Virus record (IMG/VR): IMGVR_UViG_3300014205_000181
Coordinates: 32,001 to 96,000 of that record
Strand: one strand, 5' to 3'
DNA from: a virus
Lineage: Duplodnaviria; Caudoviricetes
DNA length: 64,000 nucleotides
In this document: positions 904-32,302 of the stretch, in pieces
How the letters are laid out: every line of letters begins with the position of its first letter
Position numbering within the stretch: the stretch's first letter is position 1
Position numbers and translations under genes: made by a program
Notes under the pieces: model-generated
What the model saw: the letters and a program-made list of their open reading frames with translations, nothing else
What the model was told of the DNA's origin: nothing
Database searches by the model: none

Positions 904-3552
904 ATGACTGTAAATAAAGCATTTGCGTATATTAAAAAAGATGATTCTTTGGATTCTGAGCGTAGTATTATTTGCTATGCTTCTACTAATAGCGTTGATC
1001 GTCATGGAGATATGATCTTGCCTACGGCATGGTCCGAAAAAGGCATGAAGAATTACCGTAAGAATCCGGTAATTTTGCTTAATCATGACTACCATAATAC
1101 ATTGCCTGTTGGTAAATCTTTATGGCAGAAGACTGATGATAAAGGGTTAAAATTTAAAATCCAGTTTGCCGATACGGATCTAGGAAGGGAATTATATTAC
1201 CTATATTCTGGTGGCTATATGTCAAGCTTCAGCGTGGGTTTTCGTCCAGTGAAAACGTATGATAATGAAGATACTAAAAAATATAAGGATGAAGATGGTA
1301 ATATTCCCCATACAGTTTATGAAGAATGTGAACTATTAGAATTATCAGCCGTAAATTTGCCTGCAAATGCCGATGCTAACATGATTAGAACCGTAAAAGG
1401 GTTAGTAGAACAAGAAAAAGGTGGGTTTGTAAAATCTAAAGAATTGATTGATTTTATTGGCGGTATCAAGAGTTCAAAAGAATATATTGAATTAATTTCT
1501 GAGGACGAAGCAAAAGAAGCTCCACAAGAAAAAGCGAAAATTGTAGGGCATATCGATTTAGATTTTGACAATAAATATGTGAATGAAGATGAAATGATGA
1601 TTATTCCACTTAAAAAGAAATATGAAGATTGTGAAAATAAATGCGATAGTTGTAAAGATTGTAATAACGAAGAATTAACTGGAATTGTTGAAGAACCCGT
1701 TGAAGAAAAGTCACAAGATGATACTGATATCCAAGAGAAGGCTGAAGAGAAAGCAAAGAAACCATGTAAGAAAGAAGACGGCTGTGATGGTGAGTGCATT
1801 GGCGATGAATGTGATGAGTATGATTCATGTGATGAAGAAATGAAGAAACAATTCGTTGAGGTTTCTATTAATAAAGAAGTTATAGAGGAGATTACCGAAG
1901 AAAAACAAATTGAAGAAGTTGTTGAAACGGAAATCAAATCAGAATTGGATGAAATTATTGAAGATTCAATTAAAGAATTAGAAGAGGAAAATATAGAAAT
2001 AAAAGACACTTCTTACATTCAAAAAACGATTGATTTGTTTAATTCTTTAAATATTAAAAATATTACTCCAGAAATGAAAGAACAAATCAAAAAACAATAC
2101 GGAGAAGAGTTTGATATTTCAAGTGTAAAAGTAGAACCATATGGTTTTGAATATAAAATTTTCTGTAAGTTCCTTGGTTGTAAAGTAAAAGAAATTTTTA
2201 CTAATGACTTTTTTATTCCTACTGTAGAAAGAGGGAATTACCTTTCTGCCATTAAGACTGTGTTAAAAGATGCAACTCTCCTTGATCAAAGGGCATTTAC
2301 TCAAAATGGTTGCGAAGTTCCGCTTAAATATAGCACTATTAAATTAAATTCAAAAAGATCAGATGAATTTTTAATTACCGGGACTCAATTTTATAAATCC
2401 ACTGATGGTGAATCATTCATCCTTCAATTCTACCCTGTCTGGGGAGGAATGATAGCAGATATCTATTGTTCAAAAGACAAAAATAAAATAGCAAAATCAT
2501 TATTTGTTGATTCTGTTAAGTGGGTAGAAAAAAATAATTTTCTTAGAGGTGAAAAATTTTCCGTTAGCGGTGAATTTTTAGAAAGAAAATTATTTGAATG
2601 GGATGATGTAATTTATTCAAGTGATAAAGATAAAGAGACTATCAAGAAGAATGTTGAGAAGTTGTCAGAAACCTCTCCTAGTCGGGGGATGATGCTTGTT
2701 GGCCCTCCAGGAAACGGCAAAACTACCCTCGGCAAAGTTATGATGAATAAAATGGATTCAACATTTATTTGGGCTAGTTCAAAAGATTTTGAATGGGGTG
2801 CGGATTATACATTAGGTATTGGCTTTGAGATGGCTAGAAAATTAGCCCCCGCTGTATTTTTTATTGAGGATATTGATGGTTGGTTAAATGCTTATACTGT
2901 TGATCTTCTCAAGACAGAAATGGATGGTATTAGAGACAATAAAGGCGTTCTTACTATCTTAACAAGTAATTTCCCCGAAAATATGCCAGATGCATTGATT
3001 GATCGCCCAGGCAGATTCCATCATATTATAAATTTTTCTTTACCAAATAAAGAAAATAGAATAAAATTATTAAAGTTTTTTACTGAAAATGCCGATAAGG
3101 AAAGTATAGAAAAATTTGCAGATATGACAGAAGGATATAGTGGTTCACATCTAAGAGAATTAGTAGATTTTGCAAAAATGATTTCCGAAGATGAAGAAAT
3201 TTCAATAGACGAAGCATTAATGAAATCGTTTGAACAAATGAAAGAGCAAAGACAATTAATCCATGATATTAAAAATGAACCGAAGAAGAAAGAATTTATT
3301 GATATCGAAACTGTAGAAGTTAAAGATTCTAGTATTGATTTTGAAATTAAAAATACTGAAGAGGAAACGGTAATTAAAGAAACGATTGATTTTGAGATTA
3401 AAGAAACTAAACAAAGTGTAGATTTTAATATTACTAAAGAAGAGGCTCAAGAGATAATTAAAAATTCAATTATTAATGTAGCACAAGAAATGCAATCGAT
3501 TGAAGACTTAGTTGATGAAAGAATTAAAAGAGCAAAGGGTATTATTTTTTAA
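904..3552 (+). CDS. HK97-family prohead protease fused to a C-terminal AAA+ ATPase
   Basis: N-term: VDRHGD, NPVILLNHD, SFSVGF, LLELSAVNLPANADA. Acidic, Cys-rich linker. C-term: Walker A GPPGNGKT, Walker B FFIEDID, second region of homology ALIDRPGRF. Lies upstream of the MCP. Confidence 0.9.
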   Translation: MTVNKAFAYIKKDDSLDSERSIICYASTNSVDRHGDMILPTAWSEKGMKNYRKNPVILLNHDYHNTLPVGKSLWQKTDDKGLKFKIQFADTDLGRELYYLYSGGYMSSFSVGFRPVKTYDNEDTKKYKDEDGNIPHTVYEECELLELSAVNLPANADANMIRTVKGLVEQEKGGFVKSKELIDFIGGIKSSKEYIELISEDEAKEAPQEKAKIVGHIDLDFDNKYVNEDEMMIIPLKKKYEDCENKCDSCKDCNNEELTGIVEEPVEEKSQDDTDIQEKAEEKAKKPCKKEDGCDGECIGDECDEYDSCDEEMKKQFVEVSINKEVIEEITEEKQIEEVVETEIKSELDEIIEDSIKELEEENIEIKDTSYIQKTIDLFNSLNIKNITPEMKEQIKKQYGEEFDISSVKVEPYGFEYKIFCKFLGCKVKEIFTNDFFIPTVERGNYLSAIKTVLKDATLLDQRAFTQNGCEVPLKYSTIKLNSKRSDEFLITGTQFYKSTDGESFILQFYPVWGGMIADIYCSKDKNKIAKSLFVDSVKWVEKNNFLRGEKFSVSGEFLERKLFEWDDVIYSSDKDKETIKKNVEKLSETSPSRGMMLVGPPGNGKTTLGKVMMNKMDSTFIWASSKDFEWGADYTLGIGFEMARKLAPAVFFIEDIDGWLNAYTVDLLKTEMDGIRDNKGVLTILTSNFPENMPDALIDRPGRFHHIINFSLPNKENRIKLLKFFTENADKESIEKFADMTEGYSGSHLRELVDFAKMISEDEEISIDEALMKSFEQMKEQRQLIHDIKNEPKKKEFIDIETVEVKDSSIDFEIKNTEEETVIKETIDFEIKETKQSVDFNITKEEAQEIIKNSIINVAQEMQSIEDLVDERIKRAKGIIF
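3071..3098 (+). promoter_or_regulatory. Sigma28-like promoter box TAAAGTTT-N12-GCCGATAA, intragenic, upstream of the MCP
   Basis: Both boxes match the FliA consensus; spacer 1 nt longer than canonical. Confidence 0.5.
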
Positions 3553-3561
3553 AGGATATTT

Positions 3562-3837
3562 ATGAATAAATATTATGGTCGTAGATGTATGGGACATTAT
3601 GTAAAATGTGATGATATTCCTAGTTTATTCAAACCAACAACTGTTGGTCGTTCAATTAAAATAGTACATGGCATTCCTGATGATTCGCAATTGATTGATC
3701 TAGTAATTCAAGATGGATATGATGGGAAAGAGTGCATGTTTGTGTTTGAAAGTGAAGAATTCGACGTATTTGAATATGGGGCAAAATCACTTCCTGGTAT
3801 TTCGGTTAGATATAGTTATTATACAATTAAAGAGTGA
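3562..3837 (+). CDS. Hypothetical protein
   Basis: ORF with AAGGA RBS. Confidence 0.6.
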   Translation: MNKYYGRRCMGHYVKCDDIPSLFKPTTVGRSIKIVHGIPDDSQLIDLVIQDGYDGKECMFVFESEEFDVFEYGAKSLPGISVRYSYYTIKE

Positions 3838-3979: not shown

Positions 3980-5227
3980 ATGGAAAAAAGTGAATTTGAA
4001 GCACTTGTAAAGGACACTACTACTGAAGCCGTTAAGGGTATTATGGATGCTAATAACGAGAAGCTTGCGGACGTTATTGATGCTAAGATCAAGGAAGCGG
4101 TAGTTGATGTAGAGAAGCGGATTGTGGTAGGGAAGGAAGAAATGGAAAAGGATAAGAAAGCTGGGTTTAAATCATTTACTCATTTTTGTGTAGACATCGC
4201 AAAGGCCTCTGCGTCTGGTTTTCGTAAAGTAAGTTCTGAACTCGAGAAATGGGAAACTCATTGCACTAAAGCTGCTGGGTCTCCTTCTCAGAATGTTTCT
4301 GATGGTGAAGCTGGTGGTTATCTTGTTCCTGAAGAGTTTCGTCAGAACCTCCTAGTTGCGACTAGAGAAAAAAATGAGTTCATGTCCCGTTGTACTCAGA
4401 TTCCCATGCAGAGTAATGTAGTTAAAATCCCCTATGTAAATGGCTTCGATAAATCAGGGAATCTTGTATATGGTAATGTAGCTTGGCAGTGGACCCAAGA
4501 AGAAGAAGATTTCACCGCTAAAAACGTGAAGTTCGGTTATATTAACCTTGCTCTTCATAAGGTAACTGGTATGGCTTACGTTTCTGATGAGATTCTTCGG
4601 TTCTCTCCTATGAGTATGGAGAACATCCTTCAAGAAGGATTTATTGATGGATTTAATTATGAAATGAACCGGGTTATTCTTAAAGGAACAGGAGCTGGCC
4701 AACCGCAGGGCATTCTTTCGGCCCCTGCAACTATTAGTATTGCTGCCGAATCTGGGCAAACGTCCACTCAGATTCTTTGGGAAAACGTGATTAAGATGTA
4801 CGCTCGTTGTATCAATCCCGCAAATGCAATTTGGATTGCTAATCCAAATACCCTTCCTCAATTAGCTTCTATGAGCCTTGCTATAGGAACAGGCGGAATT
4901 CCTGTATTTATGCCTGCTGGGGGAGCTGCCGGTCAGCCTTATGCAACTCTATTTGGTCTTCCCCTTGTATTTAGCCATCATGCTAAGTCTTTGGGTACTG
5001 CTGGAGATTTAGTCCTTGCTGATATGAAACAGTATCTCTTGGGTATGCTTGCTGGCGATGAAGGTATGAGATTTGATACTTCTATGCATATTAAATTTGA
5101 AACGGACCAGCAGGCTTTCCGTTTTGCGTTCTATGTGGCCGGACAGAGTTGGATGCCAACATACCTTACTCCTCCTGAAGCTACGTCTGACACTCTTTCT
5201 CCGTTTATTATGATTGCCACTCGGTAA
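3980..5227 (+). CDS. Major capsid protein, HK97 fold
   Basis: GGYLVPEEF, ILKGTGAGQPQGIL, TLFGLPL, FETDQQAFR; GGAGG RBS favours ATG at 3980. Confidence 0.95.
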   Translation: MEKSEFEALVKDTTTEAVKGIMDANNEKLADVIDAKIKEAVVDVEKRIVVGKEEMEKDKKAGFKSFTHFCVDIAKASASGFRKVSSELEKWETHCTKAAGSPSQNVSDGEAGGYLVPEEFRQNLLVATREKNEFMSRCTQIPMQSNVVKIPYVNGFDKSGNLVYGNVAWQWTQEEEDFTAKNVKFGYINLALHKVTGMAYVSDEILRFSPMSMENILQEGFIDGFNYEMNRVILKGTGAGQPQGILSAPATISIAAESGQTSTQILWENVIKMYARCINPANAIWIANPNTLPQLASMSLAIGTGGIPVFMPAGGAAGQPYATLFGLPLVFSHHAKSLGTAGDLVLADMKQYLLGMLAGDEGMRFDTSMHIKFETDQQAFRFAFYVAGQSWMPTYLTPPEATSDTLSPFIMIATR

Positions 5228-5358: not shown

Positions 5359-6456
5359 ATGGCAAGAAAAGCAAATAAAGTAGAAGTAAAATGTGAAACG
5401 TGTGGCATCCAAAAGATTATCACTGAAAGAGCATATAACGACAATAAAACAAAGAGGTTTTATTGTAATTCTGAATGTAGAAGTAAAGATAGATTTAAAC
5501 AAATAGATGTTAGTTGTCCTAATTGTGGGAAAGAATTTTGGGTTCCAGAATCGCAATTTAATCGGACAAAATCTAAAAAGTTTTATTGTAGTGTAAAATG
5601 TAGGAGTGAACATTCTAATATTTTATCTATTTGCTCCGGTTGCGGAAAAGAGTTTATAAAGAAATCTTATGACAAAGGCGGTCTATTTTGCAGTAATGAA
5701 TGTTACTTTAAAAGCATAAGAAACAGGGTTAAAACAAATTGCGCTTTTTGTGGGAAAGAAATAGAAAAATCTAGACATCAATTTGATACTCAAGATAATT
5801 GTTTTTGCTCAAGGGAGTGTTTGTTTAGCTGGCAACGTGAAAATTGGCAAGGAGAGAGCCATCCTAATTATTCCCAAATTGAAATATCTTGTGGTTTTTG
5901 TGGTAAACAGATATCGAGAAATAAATGGCAGGTAGAGAATAGAAAATATCTCTTTTGTGATTCTTCTTGTCTTCACGATTTTATGAAAAGTGACAAGTCA
6001 TGGGGAAGAAAAGATAAACATTTAGTACCGTGTTCGAATTGTGGCAAAGAATTACTGGTTTCACCTGCTGAAGTGGATCGATATTGTAAACATTTTTGTG
6101 ATTCTTCTTGTAAGAGTGAATTTAATGTCGGAGAGAATAATCCTAACTGGAGAGGTGGATTATCATTCCAAGATTATGGGATGGAATTCAATGAAACACT
6201 AAAAGGGGTTGTTAGAAACAGGGATAATAGGACTTGTCAGTTATGTGGAGAGGTGGAAACGGATAGAAAGCATGACTGTCACCACATTGATTATTGCAAG
6301 GAAAATAATGTAGAAGAAAATCTTATTTCTTTATGTAGAGCGAATGGATGCCACTCAAAAACAAATGGGAATAGGAAGTATTGGGAAAAATATTTTAAGG
6401 AATTAATAGAACAAAAGTATAATAATCTTTTGGATGCTGCACGTTCAACAACATAA
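5359..6456 (+). CDS. HNH homing endonuclease with tandem CxxC…FCSxxC zinc-finger repeats
   Basis: Six CxxCG…(F/Y)C units; RDNRTCQLCG…CHHIDY…NLISLC…CH. Confidence 0.85.
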   Translation: MARKANKVEVKCETCGIQKIITERAYNDNKTKRFYCNSECRSKDRFKQIDVSCPNCGKEFWVPESQFNRTKSKKFYCSVKCRSEHSNILSICSGCGKEFIKKSYDKGGLFCSNECYFKSIRNRVKTNCAFCGKEIEKSRHQFDTQDNCFCSRECLFSWQRENWQGESHPNYSQIEISCGFCGKQISRNKWQVENRKYLFCDSSCLHDFMKSDKSWGRKDKHLVPCSNCGKELLVSPAEVDRYCKHFCDSSCKSEFNVGENNPNWRGGLSFQDYGMEFNETLKGVVRNRDNRTCQLCGEVETDRKHDCHHIDYCKENNVEENLISLCRANGCHSKTNGNRKYWEKYFKELIEQKYNNLLDAARSTT

Positions 6457-8084: not shown

Positions 8085-8786
8085 ATGGAAAATGTATTAG
8101 GTAATAGGTACGGAAGATGGATTGTAATAAACAACAATCCGAGTATCAGGACGAAGAAAAGAAGATCGGTCATTTGTCAATGTTCATGTAAAAAGAAAAC
8201 CGTTAGGGAAGTAACTATTGTAGATTTGAAAATGGGTAAATCTAATTCTTGCGGATGTCTCCAAAGAGAAAGGGCAGCAGAATCGAATAGTACTCATGGG
8301 CTTTATAGGCACCCTTTGTATAATATCTGGGGTTTAATGATGGGAAGATGCTATAACAAAAATGGAGTTCAATATAAGGATTGGGGCGGTAGAGGAATAA
8401 TAGTTTGCGATGAGTGGAAATATAATCCCGAATTATTTATAGAATGGTGTTTAGAAAACGGATGGGTTCAGGGATTAGAAATTGATAGAGAAAACAATGA
8501 CGGGAATTATGAACCAAATAATTGTAGATTTGTAACATCTCAGATAAATATAATAAACATGAGATTAATTCAATCAAACAACACATCTGGATATAGGGGC
8601 GTTTATTATAATAAACGCAAAAGAAGTTATTGTTGCCAAATTGGATATAACAAGAAATATATTTTAAGTGAATCTGGCTTCAAAACACCAGAACAGGCGG
8701 CGAAAGCACGGGATATATTTATTATAAAAAACGATTTGCCTCATAAATTAAATTTCCCAGAACTAGCAATTAACGGGCCGCTATGA
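8085..8786 (+). CDS. HNH-type homing endonuclease with C-terminal AP2 domain
   Basis: SCGC, WGGRGIIVCDEW, IDRENNDGNYEPNNCRF, NTSGYRGV. Confidence 0.85.
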   Translation: MENVLGNRYGRWIVINNNPSIRTKKRRSVICQCSCKKKTVREVTIVDLKMGKSNSCGCLQRERAAESNSTHGLYRHPLYNIWGLMMGRCYNKNGVQYKDWGGRGIIVCDEWKYNPELFIEWCLENGWVQGLEIDRENNDGNYEPNNCRFVTSQINIINMRLIQSNNTSGYRGVYYNKRKRSYCCQIGYNKKYILSESGFKTPEQAAKARDIFIIKNDLPHKLNFPELAINGPL

Positions 8787-31904: not shown

Positions 31905-32302
31905 TGATTGAAATAGATGTTAGCGAATATTGTGATGTGCCATTTTTAGAGAAAGGTCGGTCTATAGAAGGTTGGGATTGTTGGGGGCCTGCATATATCA
32001 TTTATAAAAACAGACTAGGGATAGAGCTTCCTTTATATACAGATAGATATAAAAACACTGAAGATGAGAAAGAACTTGGGCGTTTAATAGGAAAAGAAAA
32101 ATTGATGTGGGAGGAGGTTGATAACCCCGAGCCATATGATTTAGTTAATTTGAGACTAAAGAACCAGCCAATGCACGTTGGTGTTTGTATTGGGAATGGT
32201 AAATTTTTGCACTGTATGGAAAACGTAGGAACAACGGTAGAGAAATTAAAATCATTAACTTGGAGAGACAGAATAATTGGATTCTATCGTTACTCAAAAT
32301 AA
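31904..32302 (+). CDS. NlpC/P60 tail-associated peptidase
   Basis: GRSIEGWDCWG, HVGVCIGNGKFLH. Confidence 0.85.
   Translation: MIEIDVSEYCDVPFLEKGRSIEGWDCWGPAYIIYKNRLGIELPLYTDRYKNTEDEKELGRLIGKEKLMWEEVDNPEPYDLVNLRLKNQPMHVGVCIGNGKFLHCMENVGTTVEKLKSLTWRDRIIGFYRYSK

Follow-up and report, generated by a model that had tools for sequence, protein, structure and literature searches.

Why does the protease that matures a phage head carry an ATPase in the same polypeptide chain? The question is raised by a gene in a 64,000-nucleotide stretch of DNA, the window analysed here, from an uncultured phage with a genome of at least 145 kb. We know of no ATP-using module in prohead proteases of the HK97 gp4 type.

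The gene, its protease domain and the linker

The ORF at 904–3552 on the + strand is uninterrupted over 882 codons and encodes one 882-aa protein (P0001) that contains both a protease and an AAA unit, as a preliminary description of this DNA had proposed. A Shine–Dalgarno sequence (AGGAGG, 892–897, + strand) lies six bases before the ATG, and the GC content of the ORF (26–37%) is even along the whole length. The gene order is TerL, portal, two nucleases, a small ORF, protease–AAA, ORF91 and major capsid protein (MCP), so that the gene belongs to the head module and sits between the portal and major capsid genes. Among 80 loci from IMG/VR contigs, most have the MCP gene directly 3′ of the protease–AAA gene, whose place is invariably in the head module, next to the capsid gene. 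In the window the MCP gene spans 3980–5227 (+ strand; phrog_10, 3e-45) and probably starts with the ATG at 3980, which GGAGG precedes. In its product of 415 residues the HK97 fold begins at residue 112 (PF05065), and ahead of this lies a helical N-terminal scaffold-like region of about 65–110 aa.

The N-terminus of P0001 is an HK97-type prohead serine protease domain (aa 12–161; 937–1386, + strand), in agreement with the preliminary description. The Peptidase_S78 profile matches with 62.7 bits against a cut-off of 21 (PF04586, 6e-17), and the domain is predicted with a pLDDT of about 90. The domain contains the catalytic residues His61 and Ser110, which align with His65 and Ser114 of HK97 gp4, and also Glu146; among 62 relatives Ser110 is invariant and His61 is at least 90% conserved. 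No other protein of the 3.7-Mb assembly matches PF04586, and P0001 is the only prohead maturation protease of the phage. It shares the fold family, the catalytic His and Ser and the gene position between portal and capsid with HK97 gp4 and the other S78 proteases, which also have a C-terminal extension with a short end tail, as do the sisters of P0001 that lack the AAA module. HK97 gp4 (225 aa) and the T5-like Kamaji protease (199 aa) are much shorter, whereas the extension of P0001 holds an inserted ATPase cassette of 390 aa. Long forms of HK97 gp4-type proteases (MEROPS S78) that combine protease and scaffold include Mu gpI and P2 gpO.

The protease is followed by an acidic and mostly disordered linker (aa 162–399; 1387–2100, + strand), with 70 Asp/Glu versus 35 Lys/Arg residues over aa 159–400 and one long predicted helix (aa 334–364). 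Both of the Cys clusters noted earlier are present in the translation, at aa 243–253 (1630–1662, + strand) and aa 288–309 (1765–1830, + strand), but the linker is about 240 aa long and not 200. The clusters are not a family-wide feature, being found in only 58 of 203 members. Linker length across the family ranges from 38 to 525 aa when taken from HMM domain bounds; by family alignment the linkers of P0067 and P0068 have 19 aa.

The ATPase cassette and its structural relatives

The cassette consists of a middle domain (aa 400–572; 2101–2619, + strand) and an AAA module of the classical clade with its lid (aa 574–790; 2623–3273, + strand). Pfam detects AAA (PF00004) at aa 596–712 with 65.2 bits against a cut-off of 21.2, while the match to AAA_lid_3 is weak. 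Motifs were read on the + strand as Walker A (GPPGNGKT, aa 600–607; 2701–2724), Walker B (2854–2877), the sensor-1 residue Asn689 (2968–2970) and the RPGRF arginine-finger region (aa 701–705; 3004–3018). The description of a classical AAA module thus holds for Walker A and the arginine-finger region, both of which are intact at the places claimed, but the Walker B motif has the form hhhhED instead of the classical DE. It does so wherever it was detected (111 of the 120 listed proteins). Among the relatives, conservation of the arginine fingers and of sensor 1 reaches 90% or more, and that of the fingers suggests that the ATPase forms a ring. In P0054 and P0090 inteins are located exactly within the P-loop, as is expected where a catalytic motif is indispensable. 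The aromatic residue of pore loop 1, on the other hand, shows no conservation in the family alignment: Trp, Tyr, Arg, His, Glu or Lys occurs there and only the Gly is common. A second AAA gene of this phage (C1:13262–14752) was considered as a paralogue of the cassette and rejected, because its Walker B motif reads DE and a middle domain is missing.

The middle domain had been left as an unassigned domain of 170 aa. It is indeed present and is predicted to be well folded (pLDDT of 90.7 when modelled alone), and when it is aligned together with the AAA module it matches the N-terminal domain of YjoB and Bcs1. The top structural match of the two domains, and the sole one spanning both, is YjoB (Foldseek E of 9e-19 over 383 columns); superposition on PDB entry 7w42, chain B, gives a Z-score of 18.8 and an r.m.s.d. 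of 7.4 for 343 aligned residues (408–781 of the model versus 19–404 of the chain). Bcs1 comes next, with chains aligned over 365–394 columns. YjoB is also the best single-domain AAA sequence match in the PDB (86.5 bits). The middle domain taken alone is less distinctive. Against residues 29–163 of mBcs1 (PDB entry 6ukp, chain A) it gives a Z-score of 5.6 and an r.m.s.d. of 5.3 for 113 aligned residues, and unrelated KA1 domains score higher (Z of 6.9). Foldseek gives a probability of 0.99 with a TMq of 0.36 for Bcs1 (PDB entry 9gs2), weak matches to viral structures recur in ATPases annotated as BCS1, and no sequence match of the middle domain to any solved structure was found. A Start-type, Bet v 1-like fold was discarded, the Foldseek TM-score being about 0.25 with an r.m.s.d. 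of 11–12 Å. In terms of its modelled structure, the cassette is of the rare Bcs1/YjoB type, in which a dedicated N-terminal domain precedes an 'ED' AAA module.

The ED form of Walker B is exceptional to YjoB and Bcs1, both of which are active and form a chamber (PMC9565160). AAA proteins of this type handle folded proteins in that chamber, and YjoB is a substrate-specific anti-aggregation chaperone that is soluble and has no membrane anchor (PMC9565160). Bacillus subtilis YjoB (PDB entry 7W42) shares with the cassette of P0001 the two-domain layout, the ED motif and the absence of a membrane anchor. Sequence identity is about 20%, however, with no detectable similarity between the N-terminal domains, and YjoB is a cellular, non-viral protein of Bacillales that stands alone, with no protease fused to it. 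Mitochondrial Bcs1 (PDB entries 6UKP, 6SH3 and 9GS2) likewise has an ED Walker B and a specific N-terminal domain before the AAA module. It is heptameric and has an N-terminal membrane helix, whereas in P0001 such an anchor is absent and the middle domain is preceded by the protease and the acidic disordered linker. [quoted passage not shown] These are stand-alone genes for which no protease fusion is mentioned, unlike the fused ATPase of P0001.

The C-terminal tail and the distribution of the cassette

The AAA module is followed by a disordered acidic region (3274–3435, + strand) with four repeats of the type (I/V)D(F/I)(E/N)(I/T), located at aa 798–843, and by a predicted helix–turn–helix (3436–3549, + strand) that ends in RAKGIIF (aa 876–882). 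Repeats and terminus are where the preliminary description had put them. The repeats are related to a K-x-G-R-V-L-S element of the relatives, which follows the AAA module in 81 of 203 relatives, compared with 1.6 expected from shuffled sequences, and forms a conserved positional segment. The two tail helices (aa 845–862 and 866–877) are predicted with a pLDDT of 57–69. About 40% of the family proteins (91 of 238) end in G-x-[IVL], and the tail is still C-terminal where the domains are permuted or the protease is absent. The post-AAA region and the linker of AAA-less proteins have no credible match among PHROG families. According to work by Duda and colleagues in 2013, the C-terminal part of HK97 gp4 reportedly targets fused cargo to the capsid interior. 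By its position and by analogy with HK97, the tail is a candidate capsid-targeting element.

As in T4 internal proteins and Alt, and in fusions to the C-terminal part of HK97 gp4, a passenger that varies among relatives would here be joined to a short element that targets the capsid interior. T4 relies on an N-terminal signal that is cleaved by an S77 protease, whereas the putative signal of P0001 lies at the C-terminus, and the search for flanking cut sites gave none. The preliminary description had envisaged release of the AAA unit by self-cleavage. Each protease–AAA protein was scanned with the junction motif of its own capsid protein (K-G-G-F-K-S-L, by analogy with HK97 FNK↓SLGS), and the best matches are not significant, either at ten loci (p of 0.17–0.48) or in the window (p of about 0.9), and thus lend no support to such release. 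Neither K-x-G-R-V-L-S, the IDFEI repeats, the terminal A-K-G-I-I-F nor EKGGFVKS just after the protease of P0001 qualifies as a significant copy of the motif.

A single ORF combines protease and AAA module in 203 of the 238 family proteins retrieved and in most of 80 independent IMG/VR contigs. With so many relatives carrying it, the fusion is not a misassembly, which had been named as one way in which the idea could fail. The domain order is permuted in two family proteins. In a minority clade the protease and the ATPase are encoded by separate adjacent genes, still beside the capsid gene, which demonstrates functional linkage and not misassembly; the ATPase of this clade stops directly behind the lid, without a tail. 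One apparent natural split (L036) is instead due to a frameshift caused by an 11-nt tandem duplication. No triple fusion of protease, AAA and capsid protein was found among members of 1300–1500 aa. The middle domain is widespread, forming 358 clusters (50% identity) in a set of 1.84 billion proteins, and its mean column identity is 55% across very diverse phages.

In L085, L090, P0092, P0093 and P0099 the protease, linker, repeats and tail are kept and the cassette is absent, which bears out the earlier view of the AAA unit as a passenger. L085 has the IDFEI repeats and a tail 84% identical to that of P0001, and no AAA match in its 81-kb record exceeds the Pfam cut-off, whereas such matches are obtained in control records. 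The two closest capsid relatives have the same protease, linker and tail but lack the cassette; their MCPs are about 80% identical over the best segment, and one is 72% identical over its full length. Identity profiles between relatives are mosaic, from which the modules are seen to recombine between lineages. By these comparisons the cassette is an optional and exchangeable unit, inserted between the protease–linker part and the conserved tail.

The search for Peptidase_S78 plus AAA architectures suggested earlier shows the fusion to be common in metagenomes and uncharacterised in the literature searched, in which no paper on it was found. No cultured phage carrying it was found among 50,697 phage records, and the middle domain gave no tblastn match in cultured phages. 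The closest AAA homologues in these records, XMQ95136.1 of Stenotrophomonas phage ANB28 and AWN06241.1 of Erwinia phage phiEaP8, are 26–27% identical. Both are stand-alone proteins of about 480 aa that also have an ED Walker B, but the profile of the middle domain finds no match in their N-terminal parts, and their genes are located in early or replication regions and not, as for P0001, in the head module.

Possible roles of the cassette

The reading that we favour, and which we consider plausible but hold tentatively, is that of a maturation protease with a mobile Bcs1/YjoB-type chaperone cassette that is incorporated into the capsid as an optional helper or timer of maturation. The basic C-terminal tail would bind the acidic N-terminal scaffold-like region of the MCP, in the manner of the C-terminal part of HK97 gp4. 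The whole 882-aa chain would be built into the procapsid, in some tens of copies if HK97, with about 60 protease copies, and D3, with about 90, are a guide (PMC12749128). The ATPase parts may then assemble into six- or seven-membered rings with a chamber, which would use ATP diffusing in to bind and release folded head-interior proteins without threading them. The MCP scaffold region or the protease itself would be the likeliest client. Protease and ATPase both keep their catalytic residues. The dispensability of the cassette in close relatives argues against a core role in assembly, and the tail-less ATPases of the split clade imply that capsid entry is not universal or takes another route. 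Of the roles that had been suggested earlier, that of an unfoldase for scaffold clearance is weakened, because the nearest relatives are chamber-type chaperones of folded proteins and the pore-loop aromatic is not conserved. A stronger version, in which such rings within the procapsid scaffold spend ATP, so that maturation becomes energy-dependent and chaperone-assisted across a large uncultured clade (an 'active scaffold'), seems rather unlikely to us.

The ATPase could instead be a pre-loaded effector, comparable to the internal proteins of T4 and to Alt. Delivered into the procapsid in the same manner, it would remain inside the head after packaging, leave together with the DNA and act in the next host cell, for instance by remodelling a host or defence protein. 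Close relatives can do without the cassette and lineages exchange it by recombination, a pattern shared with accessory internal proteins, and the retention of the tail in permuted and protease-less arrangements also agrees with this idea. Nevertheless, the middle domain and AAA module are highly conserved across diverse phages, unlike fast-evolving internal proteins, a folded ring-former of 45 kDa or larger would need to unfold on its way through the phage tail, no significant cut-site copies flank the module and the split-clade ATPase lacks the C-terminal tail. We regard an effector as unlikely. A cytoplasmic ring, active while the shell nucleates or beforehand, that keeps hold of capsid or portal subunits or brings together six or seven capsid-binding tails without becoming a lasting internal part, is in line with the chaperone activity of YjoB, with the tail-less split-clade ATPases that still adjoin protease and capsid genes, and with a scaffold-like region of the MCP that is short for a genome of this size. 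The absence of the cassette beside a 72%-identical capsid protein argues against this role, which we regard as improbable.

That protease and AAA share one chain, with both catalytic centres conserved and with a very short linker in P0067 and P0068, recalls Lon or FtsH: the AAA ring would unfold scaffold or delta-domain substrates and feed them to the fused S78 domains. In Lon and FtsH, however, the AAA module comes before a tightly coupled S16 or M41 protease, whereas the S78 domain of P0001 is N-terminal, so that the order is reversed, and in some lineages it is permuted or split. The disordered linker ranges in length between 38 and 525 aa, the aromatic residue of the pore loop is not maintained, the nearest structures are chamber chaperones and not threading motors, and capsids of the same type mature in sister phages that have no cassette. 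An ATP-dependent protease of this kind is therefore very improbable. That the contig is a chimeric assembly, or the domain an inactive relic retained by chance, can practically be dismissed: the duplication that splits L036 is the one observation in its favour, and against it stand the in-frame fusion in more than 200 independent assemblies, the conservation of all ATPase and protease motifs, the even composition along the ORF and the inteins in the P-loop.

To our knowledge, the prohead proteases and scaffolds of well-studied tailed phages work without ATP, which only DNA packaging uses. Sister phages with and without the cassette are natural pairs that can be used experimentally, and the question is testable with the co-expression system used for HK97 and D3. 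If the tail is a targeting signal, it would also be a candidate for use in loading HK97-fold shells with proteins. In hundreds of uncultured phage lineages an intact Bcs1/YjoB-type ATPase is tied, physically or genetically, to the head protease. This provides a first concrete context for the unexplained BCS1-like genes of phages, and the fusion hints at an energy-using step that is linked to capsid assembly.

The protease–ATPase gene and its predicted product

The gene for P0001, the 882-aa protease–AAA protein, occupies window positions 904–3552(+) as one open frame of 882 codons, with AGGAGG six bases 5′ of its start and an even base composition across the ORF. Together with the Pfam matches to Peptidase_S78 (aa 12–161, 62.7 bits) and AAA (aa 596–712, 65.2 bits), this confirms that protease and ATPase lie in a single ORF, as the preliminary description had read from the sequence; the Cys clusters, Walker A, RPGRF region, IDFEI-type repeats and RAKGIIF end that it listed are likewise all in place. 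P0001 matches 'head maturation protease' in PHROGs (8e-29) and is the sole S78 match in the binned 3.7-Mb assembly that holds contig C1 (144,548 bp), whose positions 32,001–96,000 make up the window.

The genes around it make up a standard head module. Large terminase, portal, EndoVII/HNH gene, exonuclease and a small ORF precede the P0001 gene; after it come a 91-aa ORF, the major capsid gene, HNH genes, and genes for a virion structural protein and for connector proteins. The 91-aa ORF (window 3562–3837(+)) separates the P0001 gene from the capsid gene. Pfam gives nothing for it and PHROGs a single marginal match (E about 1e-3); the related phage loci L001, L085 and L090 lack an ORF at this place. 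Nuclease genes within the module (G000:C1:30046–32370, ending at window 370, and window 5359–6456 and 8085–8786) look like homing-type insertions: the EndoVII/HNH gene and the exonuclease stand between the portal and protease genes, and two genes for HNH endonucleases lie 3′ of the capsid gene. For the capsid gene itself the ORF caller picks TTG 3965 as the start; ATG 3980, which is preceded by GGAGG and gives 415 aa, is more likely.

In an AlphaFold2 model of P0001 (mean pLDDT 72), built from an alignment of 62 family sequences, the protease domain (aa about 20–158), an alpha/beta domain (aa 414–570) and the AAA module with its lid (aa 574–790) are confidently predicted. Disorder is predicted for aa 159–340 and for aa 795–842, which span the repeats, while aa 334–364 form a single long helix and the chain ends in two helices (aa 845–862 and 866–877). 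His61 and Ser110 align to the catalytic His65 and Ser114 of HK97 gp4; Ser110 is invariant in the family and His61 is conserved in at least 90%. Conservation is likewise at least 90% for Walker A, for sensor-1 Asn689 and for the two arginines of RPGRF; in the 111 of the 120 listed proteins where Walker B was detected, its sequence is always hhhhED. At pore-loop 1 the residue varies (W, Y, R, H, E or K), the glycine after it alone being common. Two relatives carry inteins of about 325–390 aa exactly in the P-loop (GPPG/C..., with the extein restarting at GKT): P0054, at about residue 539, and P0090, at about residue 478. Inteins occupy sites of this kind in indispensable enzymes. The protease looks active, and the ATPase appears to be an active ring type of the chamber kind.

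Assignment of the ATPase cassette

Sequence comparison puts the AAA part at about 30% identity to Cdc48/p97, VAT and AFG2, and its top single-domain match is Bacillus subtilis YjoB (86.5 bits). YjoB also leads the Foldseek results (E = 9e-19, 383 columns), with heptameric Bcs1 next (365–394 columns), and on re-alignment YjoB is the only chain that spans the middle domain and AAA together (model residues 408–781 versus chain residues 19–404; Z = 18.8, rmsd 7.4, 343 residues). YjoB and Bcs1 have ED in Walker B, an exception within the classical AAA group; their N-terminal domains adopt one fold although the sequences are not similar, and both form rings with an internal chamber, their substrates being folded proteins (PMC9565160).

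The middle domain (aa 400–572) had been described as an unassigned domain. It is confidently predicted in isolation (pLDDT 90.7) and, when aligned together with AAA, is collinear with the YjoB N-terminal domain. Structural matches to the middle domain alone are middling: the best are KA1 domains (Z = 6.9), the longest alignment (113 residues, Z = 5.6) is to the N-terminal domain of mouse Bcs1, and Foldseek relates it to Bcs1 with a probability of 0.99 and a TMq of 0.36. No sequence match to solved structures was found. In a viral structure library, the AAA-free query recurrently matched ATPases annotated as BCS1 or mitochondrial chaperones. Collinearity in the joint alignment with AAA supports its putative identification as the YjoB/Bcs1 N-terminal domain, an identity for which the domain alone gives no clear answer. 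On these results, we file the cassette (middle domain plus AAA) as one that works like and is built like YjoB/Bcs1.

Spread, arrangement and exchange of the fusion

The protease–AAA fusion is a real, conserved and widespread architecture, and an artefact is hardly credible. The protease–middle–AAA order is present in 203 of 238 proteins retrieved from the middle-domain family; 26 are middle–AAA (some fragments, others beginning with Met and keeping the tail motif at their end), two are permuted to middle–AAA–protease and three have no cassette. A search of a large protein collection gave 405 relatives; among the 120 listed, most have both Pfam domains, and their contigs reach 273 kb. Among 80 fetched IMG/VR loci (of 204), about 65 have protease, middle domain and AAA in one ORF, and in most of the 80 the capsid gene lies directly 3′. 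An exhaustive search of 1.84 billion representatives with the middle-domain profile gave 358 clusters at 50% identity, the domain nearly always starting 200–500 residues into proteins of 700–1400 aa. In a minority clade (L047, L052, L073) a separate middle–AAA gene immediately precedes a long S78 protease gene. These split-clade ATPases stop right after the lid; two of them (L047:2695–3700 and L073:4196–5250) have an extra N-terminal region of about 330–360 aa with no family match. L036 was rejected as a natural split, as it carries an 11-nt duplication frameshift.

A conserved K-x-G-[RK]-[VI]-[LI]-S element soon after AAA occurs 81 times in the 203 proteins (1.6 expected from shuffles) and is about 20 times as dense there as anywhere else in the chain. 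Relatives bearing it end in A-R-G-R-V-D or K-A-K-G-K-I-F style, and the repeats and RAKGIIF end of the P0001 lineage appear to be variants of it. The chain ends in G-x-[IVL] in about 40% of the family and in Lys/Arg-rich tails in other members; the tail motif also ends the permuted forms and is absent from split-clade ATPases. One subclade (L025, L031, L034, L038, L045, L071) has a four-Cys zinc-ribbon-like insert after AAA (C-x-C-x2-C ... C-x2-C-x2-C-G-G); the P0001 lineage instead has Cys clusters in the linker before the cassette (window 1630–1662 and 1765–1830). Cys clusters occur in 58 of the 203 members.

The cassette is dispensable and exchanged among lineages. L085, an 81-kb IMG/VR record rated 86% complete, has a capsid protein 72% identical to that of the window and the same flanking small genes; its 468-aa protease product (62–73% identical to P0001 per 42-residue bin of the protease domain) has an acidic linker that includes a comparable Cys cluster, directly adjoined by IDFEI-type repeats and a tail 84% identical to that of P0001. 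Nothing in the whole record matched middle–AAA, and no AAA exceeded the Pfam cut-off, two control records being positive. L090, with a capsid protein about 80% identical in its best segment, likewise encodes a cassette-free protease (550 aa) with a tail of the same kind; the next-closest capsid relatives (about 74%) have the cassette. Sliding identity to P0001 is 88–99% in the middle domain and AAA of P0002, 90% in its tail, 55% in its repeats and only 28–48% in its protease; P0005 shows the opposite pattern, and with P0003 the closest similarity is confined to the C-terminal half of AAA and the tail. These mosaic profiles indicate that the modules recombine between lineages; most likely, the phage of the window acquired the cassette recently. 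The cassette-free L085 genome (81 kb, 86% complete) seems to be much smaller than C1 (144.5 kb) despite the 72% identity of their capsid proteins; a link between cassette and capsid size is possible from this one pair.

A possible role in the procapsid

The protease–AAA gene has a fixed place in the head module, and a tail comes after the cassette in its several arrangements, the split-clade ATPases apart. The HK97 fold of the capsid protein begins at residue 112, preceded by a helical acidic region and a conserved K-G-G-F-K-S-L motif, which by comparison with FNK/SLGS of HK97 is the probable maturation site. In one subclade (L025, L028, L030, L033, L034, L041, L044, L048, L061, L062, L071) tandem capsid paralogues of about 440 and 350 aa lie downstream of the protease–AAA gene, the shorter starting at the motif, K(T)GGFKS, and thus without the N-terminal scaffold-like region.

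We tentatively favour a mechanism in which the basic helix-turn-helix tail would dock on the acidic N-terminal region of the capsid protein. In HK97 the C-terminal part of gp4 docks on this region of the capsid protein, and the P22 scaffolding protein docks on coat protein through a C-terminal helix-turn-helix. The whole protease–ATPase chain would then be built into the procapsid, where protease copies number about 60 in HK97 and about 90 in D3 (PMC12749128), and ATPase rings inside could use ATP to bind and release folded interior proteins. That the ATPase is instead a pre-loaded effector used after ejection is rather unlikely; release of the cassette by self-cleavage, as once proposed, is not supported because the scan for capsid junction-motif copies in cognate protease–AAA proteins was not significant. 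A cytoplasmic chaperone or hub is less probable again. Least probable of these is a Lon-like coupled protease, close to the unfoldase of the preliminary description, which is likewise weakened: the pore loop is variable, the linker is disordered and 38–525 aa long, the domain orders are reversed, permuted or split, and the relatives are chamber-type.

[quoted passage not shown] 2021; PMC7824862). Cultured phages such as ANB28 and phiEaP8 also encode stand-alone proteins (about 480 aa) with an ED Walker B; unlike P0001, these lie in early regions and have no middle domain. A second AAA protein of the window's phage (G000:C1:13262–14752(−), outside the window, 496 aa) is 24–26% identical to them, but has a classical DE Walker B; it too has no middle domain. 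Among 50,697 phage genomes no record covers the fusion or matches the middle domain, and literature searches found no paper on an S78–AAA fusion. The architecture is so far undescribed: a prohead protease with a C-terminal extension, here bearing an optional Bcs1/YjoB-type ATPase.
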